Source: a virus (taxonomy: Duplodnaviria > Heunggongvirae > Uroviricota > Caudoviricetes). Taken from it: DNA of 64,000 nt. Below are positions 7,102 through 11,440 of this stretch, piece after piece; position 1 is the stretch's first letter; the number at the start of each line of letters is the position of its first letter. The position numbers and the translations under genes were made by a program. Where the stretch lies: IMG/VR virus record IMGVR_UViG_3300037418_002962, positions 90,650-154,649 of that record; one strand, given 5' to 3'. Under the pieces are notes generated by a model. That model had not been told where the DNA came from and ran no database searches. It was given only the letters and a program-made list of their open reading frames with translations.

Positions 7102-8853
7102 ATGGCTAATAATTCTATTTCAGTGCTAGCTTTAGATTTTGCAACGTATAGAGCGCAACTTGTGCAGTATTTACAAGCTCAAGATAGGTTCAAAGATTAC
7201 AACTTCGATGCCTCGAATTTAAGCGTCTTGATAGACCTCCTTGCCCTGAATACTTACAACAATGGCTTCTACGCCTCAATGATTGGTGCGGAGCAATTTT
7301 TAGATTCTTCTCAACTCAGAGATTCCGTAATCAGTCACGCGAAGGACTTAAACTATACTCCAAGGTCCAACAAATCCTCTGTCGCGAACATTAATATTCA
7401 AGTTACTACATCTGATAACACAAAATCAATAGTGATTCCAAAATATACCTCATTCACTGGAAGAGTTGGTTCAAATACCTACACATTTACAACAAATTCT
7501 GCAGTGGTAGCTGTAAGTAACTCTAATGTAATTATTGCCAATAATATAACAATTTATGAGGGCATACTTACTACAGAACAATTTGTTTTCAACCCTAATA
7601 CAAACCAGAGATTTATCCTTTCTAATCCTAATATAGATACTTCAAGTCTCTTCGTCAACGTCATAGAAGACTCAGGAAGCACTATGTACAACTATATGTT
7701 TGCAGATAACCTTTTCGGTCTTACTGCAAACTCTACAGTATATTTTCTACAAGCAGCATCATCTGGCAATTATGAAATTATCTTTGGTGATGGTGTATCT
7801 GGTAGAATTCCAAAAGCAGGAGCAATTATCTCTGCTGAATATAGAATTTCTTCAGGATCATTTGCAAATAATATTTCAACCTTTACATCCGATGGTTTAA
7901 TTGGAGGTTATGCTAATGTAGTTGTTTCAACTAATGAACCTGCATATGATGGAGCATTTGCAGAATCACTTGCCAGTATTAAATTCAATGCTCCCAGACA
8001 TTATACAGTACAGGAAAAGGCTTCTAATGAGGATGATTATGAATCATTACTTATCAGAAACTTTCCAGAAATCTATGCAGTAGAAGCCATTGGTGGTGAA
8101 GACCTAAATCCTCCACAATTTGGTAAAATACTTATAACAGTAGCTCTCAATAATCTTTCTGTTCTTCCACAGAGCAAGATAACAACCTATACCAACTTCC
8201 TAAAATCAAAAATGCCACTAGGAAGTAAACCAATTTTTGCTAATCCTGATTTTACTTATCTGACTGTAAACTGTACTGTAAAGTACGATACTAATGTCAC
8301 AGATGCCTCACAGGATACTATCGAGTCTATTGTCCAACAAACAATTGTTGCATATAATAATGCAAATCTGAAAAATTTCAGAGTAATTCTTTATGATTCT
8401 CCATTGGGTACTATGATTGATGATTCAGACCCTTCAATTATTTCTAATGAAAGAGATATAAAACTAACAAAGAAATTTCCAGTTTCTGGTATCTCCTTGG
8501 CAAATACTGCCAGGAATAGATTTTCATTTATATTCAATCAGGCTATCCTTAATATTTCTTCTGATTTCTTTTATCGTCAGGGGGCATGGGTAGCATTTGC
8601 TGATGATGGCAATGGTATTATCAATCTTATAGATAATACTGGAAAGGTTGTCTCCAAGAATCATGGTACAGTAAATTATGAAACTGGATTTATTAATACT
8701 GGGTCATTAATTGAAAGGTTAATTGGCAATACTCTGAATTTCTATGCAGAACCTGTTGATAAGGATATTACTGCCCCAACTCAGAATATTATGTTAATAG
8801 ATCCTGTAGATATTAATGTTAATGCAATTGCCAAGAAAGGCAAGAAGAATTAA
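7102..8853 (+). CDS. gp6: baseplate wedge protein gp6
   Basis: MANNSISV start (RBS AAGGA); FKDYNFDASNLSVLIDLLALNTYNN...RDSVISHAKDLNYTPRSNKSS matches remembered T4 gp6 N-terminus (FLDYDFEGSRLNVLCDLLAYNTLY...RSSVVQAAQDNGYLPTSKSA). Confidence 0.8.
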   Translation: MANNSISVLALDFATYRAQLVQYLQAQDRFKDYNFDASNLSVLIDLLALNTYNNGFYASMIGAEQFLDSSQLRDSVISHAKDLNYTPRSNKSSVANINIQVTTSDNTKSIVIPKYTSFTGRVGSNTYTFTTNSAVVAVSNSNVIIANNITIYEGILTTEQFVFNPNTNQRFILSNPNIDTSSLFVNVIEDSGSTMYNYMFADNLFGLTANSTVYFLQAASSGNYEIIFGDGVSGRIPKAGAIISAEYRISSGSFANNISTFTSDGLIGGYANVVVSTNEPAYDGAFAESLASIKFNAPRHYTVQEKASNEDDYESLLIRNFPEIYAVEAIGGEDLNPPQFGKILITVALNNLSVLPQSKITTYTNFLKSKMPLGSKPIFANPDFTYLTVNCTVKYDTNVTDASQDTIESIVQQTIVAYNNANLKNFRVILYDSPLGTMIDDSDPSIISNERDIKLTKKFPVSGISLANTARNRFSFIFNQAILNISSDFFYRQGAWVAFADDGNGIINLIDNTGKVVSKNHGTVNYETGFINTGSLIERLIGNTLNFYAEPVDKDITAPTQNIMLIDPVDINVNAIAKKGKKN

Positions 8854-9566
8854 TGAAATCATTCAAGCAAATCTTAAAAGAACGTGAAGAAGAACTTCTA
8901 GATCCTGATAGATGGGTAGGAACTGCAAAACACAATACAGTATCTTCACATTACATTGGGCATGATTCAGTAAATCCTAATCACTGGTATAATAAACAAC
9001 ACGGTCCTGGAAGTTCTTATGACATACCTAAAAGCATAACTCCAGAAGAGGCTGAATCTCTTAATGATTATGCATGGGGTTCATGGCATATTAATCATTT
9101 TCATAGGTCAGGTGGAGAAGTTCCTAAGCATTTTAGTGGAACTAAAGGTGAAATAGAACATCACACAAAGAACTTAGATTCTGTTTTAAATAAACACAGC
9201 CTTTCAAATAACTTTCATGTCTGGAGAGGATTTGCAGAACACAAAATAGTTCCTGCATTAAATCTCAAACCGGGAGATACTTTCCATGATAAAGGATTTG
9301 TTTCTACTTCAACCAATCCTAATGTTGCTAAAGGATTTACACCATTATCTCCAGGAATTGACCGACATTTATTTCATATTAAAGTTCCTAAGGGAAGTAA
9401 AGCATTGGCAATGGAGCATGTTTCATTTGGGGCTGGTGGAGAGAATGAAGTATTACTTCCAAGAAACTCAAAGTTCCGTTACGATAGCAGGGAAGAACAT
9501 CCCGCTCCTGAAGGGTCTAAACTAATTATCCATCATGTTACGCATATCCCAGAAAGTTCCGAATGA
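8853..9566 (+). CDS. capsid-targeted ADP-ribosyltransferase paralog 5
   Basis: MKSFKQILKE; YAWGSWHINHFHRSGG, FHVWRGF, DKGFVSTST, GENEVLLPRNSKFRYDS. Confidence 0.8.
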   Translation: MKSFKQILKEREEELLDPDRWVGTAKHNTVSSHYIGHDSVNPNHWYNKQHGPGSSYDIPKSITPEEAESLNDYAWGSWHINHFHRSGGEVPKHFSGTKGEIEHHTKNLDSVLNKHSLSNNFHVWRGFAEHKIVPALNLKPGDTFHDKGFVSTSTNPNVAKGFTPLSPGIDRHLFHIKVPKGSKALAMEHVSFGAGGENEVLLPRNSKFRYDSREEHPAPEGSKLIIHHVTHIPESSE

Positions 9567-10183
9567 AAACCTACAAAGAACTGCTAGAAAAATGGATTGG
9601 TGCTCGTAGAAGTGTACAGCAAGGATCTAGGCAGTACTTGAAGAATTATGGCAAGACAAACTTTGGCACCAGAATTCATGATTATGGAAATATTTTTGAT
9701 GATGAAATAAAATCTTTACATCATTACTCTAATGAAGGATATGATTCAATTAATAGACATTTAAGACATAATTCAAAGTTCCCTGCACATCCTGCAATTC
9801 AAGAACATATTAATAATATTGATTATGCAATCCATAAACATGAAACCAAACATGATATGCATGTATATAGAAGTCTTGGATGGCATGATCCAGAAATGAA
9901 ACCAGGAGATATTTACCATGACAGAGGTTTCGTTTCTACAACATTAAATAATCATTGGGGCACAGGAACAGGACATCTCATCCATATCAAGGTTCCTAAA
10001 GGTTCCAAGGCACTTTATCTAAACCAGAGAAGTCTTTCAAAACACTTTGGAGAACAGGAAGTATTATTGCCAAGAAATGCAAAATTCCGTTATGAAGGTT
10101 CAGAGAAAGTAAAAGACAAATATAATCAGGAAGGCACTCTTCATCATATGACATATCTAGGAACACACCATGAAGACACTTAA
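9563..10183 (+). CDS. capsid-targeted ADP-ribosyltransferase paralog 6
   Basis: MKTYKELLEKWIG (closest to T4 IPIII CTS MKTYQEFIAE); YDSINRHLRHNS, MHVYRSL, DRGFVSTTL, GEQEVLLPRNAKFRYEG. Confidence 0.8.
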   Translation: MKTYKELLEKWIGARRSVQQGSRQYLKNYGKTNFGTRIHDYGNIFDDEIKSLHHYSNEGYDSINRHLRHNSKFPAHPAIQEHINNIDYAIHKHETKHDMHVYRSLGWHDPEMKPGDIYHDRGFVSTTLNNHWGTGTGHLIHIKVPKGSKALYLNQRSLSKHFGEQEVLLPRNAKFRYEGSEKVKDKYNQEGTLHHMTYLGTHHEDT

Positions 10184-10808
10184 AGAATTACTTGAAGAAA
10201 CTAAAAGGTTTGAGATAGGAAGTGAAGATCCTATGCATGATTTTTCTAATGAGGATTATCATAACTTTAAAAAATTAAATAATCCTCATCAGCACAACAG
10301 CCTTTCTAATCATGAGACAAGATATCTAGGTGATTATGCTGGTTCTGGCTATTCTGCTGTTAATGATTATCATAGAGGAATGAGGGAAAGATATTTCGAG
10401 AAAAATCCATATACAGTAAATGGTATCAAGAACAAAACAAAACATTTAGATTCTGCCATAGGCAAGCATATTACTCTATATGATGCCCATGTCTGGAGAG
10501 GTATTACGCATAAATTAAAAGCAAAGAAGGGTGATATAATTCAGGATAAAGGTTATACGTCCACAAGCTTCAGGCCAAATGCTGCAATGGCATTTCTTGA
10601 TATGGAAAATAACCTTAGACATCATCTAATTCATATAAAAATTCCTGCATATTCCAGGGCAGTTTATATGCATCATAATAATTCTTCAGAAGAACAGGAA
10701 GTTCTTTTACCAAGAGGAAGTAAATTTAAATACCTTGGGAAAGAGAAACATCCAAGATATCCTAATATTACTATACATCATCTAGAGCATATTCCAGAGG
10801 AATCATGA
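10170..10808 (+). CDS. capsid-targeted ADP-ribosyltransferase paralog 7
   Basis: MKTLKELLEE; YSAVNDYHRGM, AHVWRGI, DKGYTSTSF, EEQEVLLPRGSKFKYLG; 14-nt overlap with upstream paralog. Confidence 0.8.
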   Translation: MKTLKELLEETKRFEIGSEDPMHDFSNEDYHNFKKLNNPHQHNSLSNHETRYLGDYAGSGYSAVNDYHRGMRERYFEKNPYTVNGIKNKTKHLDSAIGKHITLYDAHVWRGITHKLKAKKGDIIQDKGYTSTSFRPNAAMAFLDMENNLRHHLIHIKIPAYSRAVYMHHNNSSEEQEVLLPRGSKFKYLGKEKHPRYPNITIHHLEHIPEES

Positions 10809-11440
10809 TTACTTTTAAAGAATTACAAGAAAAATGGTTAGGATCTTCAAAACACAAAGCACAAGGTGCAGAACCTCTATCTAATGAAGAAATGCATAAA
10901 ATTGGTAATAAACTTCATGATCCACAGGAACTATCCGATATTGAAAAAAATCATTTAAGTTATTATACTGGTCCTGGACATTTATTAGTTAATGATCATC
11001 TAAGAGGAATTCGTACTTTTTCAGATCCTGATATTCATAAAGATATCAGCCAAATTAGTAATGCCATAGGAAAACATTCTACAAAACATGACGTTCATGT
11101 ATGGAGAAGTTATCATGATATTAAAGATTTAGGTCTTAAAAAAGGCGATATTTTCCATGATAAAGGATTTGTTTCTACTTCTTTAAGAAATAATCATAGT
11201 TCTCATATTCATACTCATATTATGCACATAAAAGTTCCCAAGGGAAGCAATGCAATGTATCTGAATCAGGAAAAAACTTCTAGTTATCCAGATGAACATG
11301 AAGTACTTTTACAAAAAGGAGCAAAATTCAAATATCATGGCGCAAAAACTCATGAAGTTCCTTTTCCAGCAGATATGAGAAATCCCACAAGAACAATGAC
11401 AATTCATCGTATGACCTATCTTGGTTCTGAAGATTCATAA
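10805..11440 (+). CDS. capsid-targeted ADP-ribosyltransferase paralog 8
   Basis: MITFKELQEKWLG; HLLVNDHLRGI, VHVWRSY, DKGFVSTSL, DEHEVLLQKGAKFKYHG. Confidence 0.8.
   Translation: MITFKELQEKWLGSSKHKAQGAEPLSNEEMHKIGNKLHDPQELSDIEKNHLSYYTGPGHLLVNDHLRGIRTFSDPDIHKDISQISNAIGKHSTKHDVHVWRSYHDIKDLGLKKGDIFHDKGFVSTSLRNNHSSHIHTHIMHIKVPKGSNAMYLNQEKTSSYPDEHEVLLQKGAKFKYHGAKTHEVPFPADMRNPTRTMTIHRMTYLGSEDS

Follow-up and report, generated by a model that had tools for sequence, protein, structure and literature searches.

Leader-tagged ADP-ribosyltransferase genes dispersed among the baseplate and neck genes of a T4-like phage: a candidate family of head-packaged effectors

Phage proteins that are injected into the host act ahead of all phage gene expression and shape the first minutes of infection; to our knowledge, those described so far are single examples (Alt, IPI*, the N4 virion RNA polymerase and the P1 Dar proteins). 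The ADP-ribosyltransferase (ART) Alt of T4 is a late product that is packaged into the head, undergoes trimming by gp21 and is injected (PMC9026906, PMC5512222). The T4 internal proteins IPII and IPIII begin with MKTYQEFIAE, and these 10 residues constitute the capsid-targeting sequence (CTS), in which targeting depends on positions 4 and 7 and cleavage by gp21 on positions 8 and 10 (PMC9026906). Foreign proteins fused to the T4 CTS are packaged and injected, and a review of the T4 head considers the CTS to be perhaps an evolutionary device of T4-like phages for loading varied proteins into heads (PMC9026906). ARTs of the Alt/VIP2 clade in T4-like phages are associated with baseplate genes, which has been read as late synthesis and head packaging, and polyvalent proteins carry up to 12 ART domains per polypeptide (Iyer et al., PMC5512222). 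Here we describe an array of four ART genes located between the genes for the baseplate wedge proteins gp6 and gp7 in a 64,000-nt stretch of a tailed-phage genome (IMG/VR record IMGVR_UViG_3300037418_002962; the whole stretch is referred to as the window, and positions are given on it, 1 being its first letter), together with the larger gene family to which the array belongs. By analogy with these systems, we consider it probable, with some reservation, that the encoded proteins are late-made, head-packaged, protease-trimmed and injected arginine ARTs with diversified targets.

Four intact ORFs on the + strand, all of them PF03496 ARTs, were found between the gp6-like and gp7-like genes in the ORF listing and the raw sequence, as follows.

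7102..8853, + strand: gp6-like baseplate wedge gene (phrog_219, 1e-135; Pfam Gp6-like_1st)
8853..9566, + strand: ART1, 237 aa (PF03496, 5.6e-20; leader MKSFKQILKE; motifs VWR, STS and ENE)
9563..10183, + strand: ART2, 206 aa (PF03496, 1.4e-27; leader MKTYKELLEK; motifs VYR, STT and EQE)
10170..10808, + strand: ART3, 212 aa (PF03496, 1.9e-16; leader MKTLKELLEE; motifs VWR, STS and EQE)
10805..11440, + strand: ART4, 211 aa (PF03496, 2e-25; leader MITFKELQEK; motifs VWR, STS and EHE)
11477..14338, + strand: gp7-like baseplate wedge gene with a TTG start (phrog_17744, 2.4e-153; Pfam Baseplate_wedge)

The stop codon of gp6 and the start codon of ART1 have one base in common (TAATG, 8851–8855). ART1 and ART2 overlap by 4 nt in an ATGA (9563–9566), as do ART3 and ART4 (10805–10808), and the overlap between ART2 and ART3 is 14 nt (10170–10183). 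The four ART ORFs and the three overlaps between them matched exactly the coordinates and overlaps given in an initial annotation made from the sequence alone. A Shine–Dalgarno-like purine-rich stretch lies 5–9 nt 5′ of each of the four ART starts. The likely start of the gp6-like gene is the ATG at 7102 (the mechanical ORF opens at a GTG at 7051, and the gene call in L022 is 583 aa); its best match was gp6 of Caulobacter phage Cr30 (37 % identity), with 36 % identity to Sinorhizobium phage phiM12, and these two phages are, as judged by gp6, the nearest relatives in culture. The gp7-like gene matched the Cr30 gene just after gp6 (phmmer, 7e-107) and is itself followed by a gp8-like gene.

ART1–4 scored 60–97 bits against PF03496 (ADPrib_exo_Tox; cut-off 23.4 bits), with E values from 2e-16 to 1e-27, and were assigned in PHROGs to ‘ADP-ribosyltransferase exoenzyme toxin’, with weaker matches to ‘Alt-like’ ART families. 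A profile search of PDB placed VIP2 first (1e-20), followed by CdtA, BECa, iota Ia, Vis, C3larvin and C3, and the NCBIfam scan gave only sub-threshold matches, to certhrax and SpvB. The AlphaFold2 model of ART2 (mean pLDDT 79, pTM 0.77) adopted a C3/VIP2 fold, with a confident core at approximately residues 40–200 (mostly pLDDT >85) and values below 50 for residues 1–32; Foldseek comparison of this model with PDB returned VIP2, Plx2A and C3bot at E ~1e-13 and a TM-score of ~0.65. Alignment of the ART family with the catalytic region of T4 Alt (residues 408–514) by hhalign gave a probability of 97 % (E 5.8e-11), a weak kinship, with VIP2 and C3 being closer. The catalytic Arg, S-T-[ST] and ExE were aligned in every paralog in the window. 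ART1–4 are thus, as judged by sequence and predicted fold, small single-domain mono-ADP-ribosyltransferases of the R-S-ExE (C3/VIP2/Alt) class whose catalytic motifs are intact. Among the window ORFs that were scanned with Pfam, PHROGs or NCBIfam, which included part of the small ORFs, no ADP-ribosylhydrolase, macrodomain or other immunity partner was detected.

Nearly all members of the family, which comprises at least 28 paralogs in the window and the DNA upstream of it (described below), start with M-K-[ST]-[FY]-K-[EQ]-[LF]-[LI]-x-E. A log-odds matrix of this leader was derived from residues 1–10 of 46 members of the family and applied to 1070 control N-termini. The T4 CTS scored 19.8 bits with this matrix, which put it at the top of the 1070 controls (the next score was 14.3) and above the family minimum of 17.0; the four ARTs of the array spanned 24–31 bits (30.8 for ART1, 30.4 for ART2 and 29.9 for ART3). 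The motif [LIVFMY]-x-E, of the type recognized for cleavage (LKE at residues 8–10 in ART1), was present near the end of the leader in 26 of the 28 paralogs, where it ended at residue 9 or 10 apart from one case at residue 8 and one at residue 11, and also in 25 of 29 relatives on other contigs; only 18 % of the controls contained it anywhere in residues 5–14. One paralog leader reads MKRLKEFIAE. From these comparisons we conclude that the leader and the T4 CTS are homologous or, at the least, closely analogous. Another conserved motif, W-[LIV]-G-[TA], was observed in most paralogs 1–12 residues past the predicted cleavage site (for example EEWLGT and EKWIGA; window 8883–8924), and would fall near the mature N-terminus.

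Two further genes in the window bear on the role of the leader.

4799..6313, + strand: LRV/HEAT-repeat protein, 504 aa, non-ART, with the leader MKSFSQLLEA (Pfam LRV/HEAT; leader 21.8 bits)
48289..48939, + strand: gp21-like prohead core serine protease, the presumed processor of the leader (Pfam Peptidase_S77, 3.4e-35; phrog_207, 5e-71)

The leader was also found in L031, a more distant T4-like phage from IMG/VR, in which gp20–gp21–gp22–gp23 (the portal, protease, scaffold and capsid genes) are flanked by leader-bearing ARTs, two before gp20 and three after gp23; after the gp23-side ARTs comes one more leader-bearing protein, for which neither the ART profile nor Pfam gave a match. Since the leader heads the non-ART HEAT-repeat and L031 proteins and lies outside the confidently folded core of the ART2 model, it appears to be separable from the enzyme, and the LRV/HEAT-repeat protein is probably another candidate for head-packaged cargo. 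An orthologue of the HEAT-repeat protein beside gp25 in L024 was 68 % identical, the highest conservation among seven proteins for which the window was compared with L023/L024.

Genes for a gp20-like portal, a gp22-like scaffold and a gp23-like capsid protein are also present in the window. The N-terminus of the prohead protease (MKLLRDYLTEDIEY, window 48289–48330, + strand) was itself leader-like, its 13.1 bits being the best non-cargo score in the window. It has been suggested that gp21 has a CTS-like, self-cleaved propeptide (PMC9026906), with which the leader-like N-terminus of the protease would fit. A head destination for the ARTs, which had only been asserted in the initial annotation, is now backed by a CTS-like leader and by a predicted Peptidase_S77 prohead protease in the same window.

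The same observations bear on the possibility that the ARTs are late intracellular enzymes of the ModA/ModB kind that are not packaged, the N-terminus having a structural or regulatory role. This we consider unlikely. T4 ModA and ModB are indeed phage ARTs with no need of packaging (PMC5512222), and the late context of the array is itself read from sequence, but the leader falls within the low-confidence N-terminal region (1–32) of the ART2 model, is common to the non-ART HEAT-repeat protein and is not statistically separable from the T4 CTS, and its hydrophobic-x-Glu lies at the right distance for processing. The benefit of some 28 different ARTs at the end of infection would also be hard to see.

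A hidden Markov model (HMM) built from ART1–4 identified six more paralogs in the window, with E values from 1e-32 to 6e-54, well outside chance expectation; these, and the gp25-like gene that separates two of their blocks, are as follows.

1..370 (HMM match 56–370), + strand: C-terminal part of ART0 (the full gene, of 212 aa, is P0071 and starts 268 nt before the window)
370–801, + strand: gp25-like gene
803–1516, 1513–2256 and 2256–2927, + strand: three ART paralogs directly after the gp25-like gene (family HMM)
36163..36846, + strand: ART paralog between the gp14-like and gp15-like neck/tail genes (family HMM)
37871..38497, + strand: ART paralog between the gp15-like gene and the small terminase gene (family HMM)

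DNA upstream of the window was obtained from a 38-kb Logan contig, the last 280 nt of which are identical to positions 1–280 of the window (L108:13755–14034). This DNA contained 19 leader-bearing ART genes (L109:5994–20591 and L108:10001–14034), one of which, ART0, reaches into window positions 1–370, in blocks of 3, 2, 8 and 6 among gp53, a 415-aa protein, gp5 and gp25. The order of genes was gp48-like, gp53, three ARTs, Acb1, a homing endonuclease (opposite strand), two ARTs, the 415-aa protein, a 264-aa protein (opposite strand), eight ARTs, gp5, six ARTs, gp25, three ARTs, a 584-aa ORF, the HEAT-repeat protein, an HNH gene (opposite strand), gp6, four ARTs, gp7 and gp8, and at the neck gp14, ART, gp15, ART and gp16. 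In total, therefore, the window and the upstream DNA held at least 28 ART paralogs in at least eight blocks between baseplate and neck genes, 28 being a lower bound for the genome, and each baseplate gene junction from gp53 to gp7 held an ART block. All 28 ORFs were intact and matched the family HMM at E ≤1e-32. The ‘two arrays plus two singletons’ described initially hence underestimated the scale of the family.

That at least 26 of the 28 ART genes lie among baseplate genes, from gp53 to gp7, could mean that gene position reflects a physical association with gp5, gp25, gp6 and gp7, the ARTs being cargo carried on the baseplate, spike or tube of the tail in the way that type VI secretion system effectors are carried on VgrG/PAAR; PAAR-linked ART effectors (Tre1, PDB 6drh) are weak sequence relatives (E 4e-5). 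However, the same leader occurs on the ARTs at the neck and terminase genes (36163 and 37871) and on those around the head genes of L031, it matches the head-targeting sequence of T4 and has a motif of the prohead-protease type, and Pfam, PHROGs and NCBIfam scans of the ARTs detected no PAAR, VgrG-adaptor or other tail-association domain. Carriage on the tail is accordingly regarded as quite unlikely.

The presence of the array between gp6 and gp7 was compared with the gene order in other phages. In T4, genes 6 and 7 were adjacent, as stated in the initial annotation, and overlap by 4 nt. Adjacency of gp6 and gp7 was also found in Caulobacter phage Cr30 and Sinorhizobium phage phiM12, in both of which gp25, gp6, gp7 and gp8 are continuous save for one HNH gene in phiM12. 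Nineteen IMG/VR loci with gp6 relatives (25–52 % identity) were investigated; gp6 abutted gp7 in all 11 loci in which both genes were detected, and an ART was absent from all 19. Given this adjacency and the lack of ARTs in those relatives, the array is taken to be lineage-specific, and the claim that it is an insertion between two otherwise neighbouring genes was borne out by the synteny comparison. A megablast search with positions 7000–14400 against 50,697 phage records gave no match, and tblastn with ART1 and ART2 yielded no T4-like phage, all matches being to distant ART domains of siphophages and jumbo phages. One scan of metagenome contigs gave no confirmed relative, and another gave only relatives below 40 % identity and recovered neither the source contig nor close family members, so that these scans say little on the spread of the family.

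Closer relatives were found in assembled sequence data. The window sequence itself belongs to a JGI metagenomic contig of 243,684 bp and recurs in Logan assembly SRR35144446. In L023 (SRR13312976) the order was a partial ART1-like gene, an ART4 orthologue and gp7; the ART4 orthologue (L023:608–1234) was 54 % identical and abuts a gp7 that is 52 % identical to that of the window. In L024 (ENA GROS21) the order was ART, ART, gp25, the HEAT-repeat protein, an ARTb orthologue (59 %) and an ARTa orthologue (52 %). The ART orthologues in L023 and L024 were thus 52–60 % identical, on a par with gp7 and gp25, and this conservation argues for purifying selection rather than decay.

A profile search of 1.84 billion representative proteins gave 21,094 relatives. 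The list was headed by giant proteins with 4–12 tandem R-S-ExE ART domains, followed by approximately 50 single-domain proteins of 200–280 aa with the same leader, 20 of them from this phage and approximately 30 from other contigs. The giant tandem-ART proteins were among P0013–P0040 and also occurred in L086, L049, L078 and L105, with the motifs R, S-T-S and ExE; P0014 had 12 matched stretches in 2156 aa and P0027 had four in 801 aa, and L086:209–17950 is a 5913-aa ORF with six ART domains.

Identity among the window paralogs compared was 29–48 %. A neighbour-joining (NJ) tree, the paralog phylogeny that the initial annotation had proposed, revealed that the members of the gp6|gp7 array are not mutual nearest relatives: the pairs were ART4 with ART2, ART1 with the singleton between gp14 and gp15, and ART3 with the singleton between gp15 and gp16. 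Synonymous codon identity at the gene ends was not raised, being no higher than in the catalytic motifs. Low paralog identity, the conservation of orthologues, the tree and the flat codon identity together indicate that the duplications are old, that the copies have been kept by selection and that the composition of the array has been shuffled; on this sequence evidence, the duplications are ancient and selectively maintained. The proposal of repeated duplication and relocation within the structural module therefore stood in kind, but the events are old (29–48 % identity between paralogs, 52–60 % between orthologues). Recent tandem duplication or gene conversion was ruled out by the NJ tree and the codon identity at gene ends, and readings of the ORFs as pseudogenes or chance ORFs were ruled out by the conservation of motifs and orthologues. 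No DNA-level signal was found for the conserved junction between 3′ end and 5′ leader as a substrate for recombination, which is an idea only.

The age of the duplications also bears on whether the arrays might be selfish or decaying cassettes, the products of neutral unequal recombination that are mostly redundant or being lost. We judge this to be very unlikely. Unequal crossing-over could be favoured by gene ends that are conserved at the protein level (C-terminal ..HHLTHIPE, then MKxFKELLE), and the make-up of the arrays does vary in relatives, L023 having an ART1-like gene directly before an ART4-like gene. Nevertheless, all 28 ORFs are intact with the catalytic R and S-T-[ST], 27 with ExE and one with the functional variant QxE; the paralogs are only 29–48 % identical, yet orthologues are conserved like structural proteins; and the synonymous codon identity at gene ends showed no trace of gene conversion or duplication in the recent past.

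The 28 paralogs varied mostly at four places: residues ~14–45, the loop that follows the LR motif, the PN loop behind STS and the ARTT loop ahead of ExE. In characterized C3 and iota toxins, the PN and ARTT loops are substrate-recognition elements, and within this class of toxins ExE goes with arginine acceptors and QxE with asparagine. Because the variation is concentrated in the N-terminal region and the substrate-recognition loops, the paralogs probably differ in their targets. The catalytic Arg and S-T-[ST] were found in 28/28 paralogs genome-wide, ExE in 27/28 and QxE in 1/28. The QxE paralog (P0124; ..PEQHELVLPR..) is located at L108:12770–13489 (+ strand), approximately 1 kb upstream of the window, and by analogy with the toxins may have a different acceptor chemistry (Arg to Asn).

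The timing of expression was considered from promoter-like sequences. The T4 late-promoter core ATAAATA occurred at 20 sites on the + strand in positions 1–52000, 15 of them at a gene start or shortly before it; gp13, gp18, gp19, gp20, gp22 and gp23 each have such a site directly upstream. Two candidate cores were located at the borders of the gp6–ART unit.

7005..7012, + strand: candidate T4-type late promoter core CATAAATA, 96 nt 5′ of the gp6 ATG
11439..11446, + strand: candidate late promoter core AATAAATA, over the ART4 stop codon and 37 nt 5′ of gp7

No ATAAATA was present on the + strand between 7102 and 11439. A late core over the preceding stop codon was likewise found upstream of gp8, of the HEAT-repeat gene and of the homing endonuclease gene at 40664. 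Over the whole window, the exact TATAAATA count was not enriched, and sigma-70-like promoters and intrinsic terminators in 6900–11700 were at chance level; of these analyses, it was the positions of the 7-mer core alone that carried information. The simplest reading of these sequences is a late gp6–ART1–4 transcript, followed by a fresh late start at gp7. Late co-expression with the baseplate genes, as originally claimed, is consistent with the lack of intergenic space and with cores before gp6 and at the ART4 stop with none between, and lateness is inferred from the sequence.

According to the mechanism that we favour, the ART genes would ride as passengers in the late transcription unit of gp6, and their translation would be coupled via the overlapping stop and start codons. 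The 10-residue leader would work as a CTS of the T4 type and direct each enzyme to the prohead and its scaffolding core; there the Peptidase_S77 prohead protease would cut behind the hydrophobic-x-Glu motif, whose Glu is residue 9 or 10, and release the enzyme inside the head. At infection the ARTs would leave the head together with the DNA and, on the model of T4 Alt, would use host NAD+ to ADP-ribosylate arginines of host proteins ahead of phage gene expression, the purpose being host take-over, neutralization of defences, or both. The alternatives of tail cargo, non-packaged enzymes and decaying cassettes are weakened because of the leader evidence and the conservation of orthologues. Several points weigh against the favoured mechanism. 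The hydrophobic-x-Glu near residue 10 is missing in two of the 28 paralogs, and the leader is similar rather than identical to the T4 CTS, so its recognition by the phage's own scaffold is presumed. The candidate promoter CATAAATA of gp6 is a one-mismatch variant and lies within the 5′ end of a homing-endonuclease gene on the opposite strand. Packaging, cleavage, injection, activity and targets are proposed by sequence analogy for an uncultured phage, and it is questionable whether one head would have room for useful copies of approximately 28 enzyme species and other cargo.

A more far-reaching proposal, which we put forward tentatively and regard as possible rather than probable, is that the internal-protein route of T4 has been turned into a combinatorial arsenal, in which at least 28 leader-tagged ARTs and HEAT-repeat-type cargo would be co-packaged and co-injected, each with its own host target (for example RNA polymerase, translation factors or immune proteins). 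If so, the phage would carry a pre-loaded kit for host take-over and anti-defence, kept by selection, which would correspond, in the form of many genes, to the giant tandem-ART polyproteins and would be the largest family of effectors so far known from one phage. Approximately 19 kb, about 8 % of the ~244-kb genome, is given to the at least 28 separately tagged ARTs. Should the favoured mechanism hold, the capsid-targeting route of T4 would be a general and expandable delivery system, ADP-ribosylation would take part in phage–host conflict on a far larger scale than T4 implies, and late structural operons would act as landing pads for cargo genes. The approximately 60 diverged C3-like ARTs (28 here and approximately 30 in relatives) also constitute a natural panel for mapping how the ARTT and PN loops specify bacterial targets, and the natural variants of the packaging tag could help to engineer protein delivery by T4-like phages.

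Other genes in and near the window included an Acb1 homologue (anti-CBASS phosphodiesterase; Pfam PF23474, E 1.5e-30) at L109:8010–8501 (+ strand), among the ART blocks and approximately 15 kb upstream of the window. Because this homologue is embedded among the ART blocks, the arrangement suggests that the baseplate region gathers counter-defence genes. The remaining features recorded in the window were as follows.

6310–7020, − strand: HNH/NUMOD-type homing endonuclease, before gp6
16440–16976, + strand: HNH/NUMOD-type homing endonuclease, after gp8
40664–41293, + strand: HNH/NUMOD-type homing endonuclease, between the large terminase and sheath genes
3016–4770, + strand: 584-aa ORF in the structural module (no Pfam, NCBIfam or PHROG match)
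46156–47592, + strand: 478-aa ORF between portal and protease (no Pfam or NCBIfam match; short C-terminal match to PHROG 7884)
29909–30541, + strand: DnaJ-domain protein, in a non-structural stretch between the tail-fibre and neck genes
31529–32446, − strand: SPFH/Band-7 protein, in the same stretch as the DnaJ gene
55565–55641: tRNA-Leu(CAA), next to a 398-aa ORF

The homing endonuclease gene at 6310–7020 (− strand) has a perfect TATAAATA on its own strand at 7079–7086, approximately 60 nt 5′ of its start. The GC content peaked at 0.47 (55963–57159) and 0.44 (51001–52000), compared with a window mean of approximately 0.34; the peak at 55963–57159 (− strand) corresponds to the 398-aa ORF, which has no Pfam match and is overlapped by a 298-aa ORF on the opposite strand.

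Among the systems with which the family can be compared, T4 Alt is likewise an ART of the R-S-E class to whose catalytic region homology was detectable (hhalign 97 %; phrog_802 matches), and it is likewise encoded in the structural-gene region by baseplate genes, T4 alt being a neighbour of gene 54. However, Alt is one protein of 682 aa with a large N-terminal part, whereas the ARTs of the array are single-domain proteins of 206–237 aa; the short propeptide of Alt (MELITE...) is not a CTS of the internal-protein type, whereas these ARTs carry such a leader; and the family as a whole consists of at least 28 genes for single domains of 202–280 aa that are closer to VIP2, C3 and CdtA than to Alt. 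With IPI, IPII and IPIII of T4 the family has in common a 10-residue leader in which position 4 is aromatic, position 7 is hydrophobic and hydrophobic-x-Glu occupies 8–10. The T4 internal proteins are small, basic and non-enzymatic, in contrast to an enzyme family and a HEAT-repeat protein here, and the cargo genes here are scattered through the baseplate and neck operons.

The exotoxins VIP2, C3, iota Ia and CdtA gave the best sequence and fold matches, with the same R, S-T-S and ExE and, as in C3, a single alpha/beta ART domain of approximately 200 aa. Unlike these toxins, the phage ARTs are without a secretion signal, binary-toxin adaptor domain or B component and have a predicted head-targeting leader instead, and they presumably act on bacterial targets, not on the actin or Rho of eukaryotes. 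Polyvalent and giant tandem multi-ART proteins resemble the family in that many effector modules, often including several ARTs, are delivered with the invading DNA (PMC5512222). Those proteins are single giant polypeptides, whose ART domains belong mostly to the H-Y-D clade in PMC5512222, whereas the ARTs here are separate ORFs, each equipped with a start codon, a ribosome-binding site and a leader. The MuF-toxin fusions of siphophages also comprise a head-associated ART that is delivered at infection, and matches to phrog_595 and ‘minor head protein’ were obtained on the ART domain; however, there was no MuF match here, phrog_595 covering the ART part only (profile ~300–500 of 513), and a short cleavable leader, not a fusion with a structural protein, would do the targeting. 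The literature searched contained no description of arrays of leader-tagged ART genes. CTS-directed injected cargo and injected ARTs are thus known kinds, and what appears to be new is that the two are combined, that the genes are dispersed over baseplate and neck operons, and that the family is so large.

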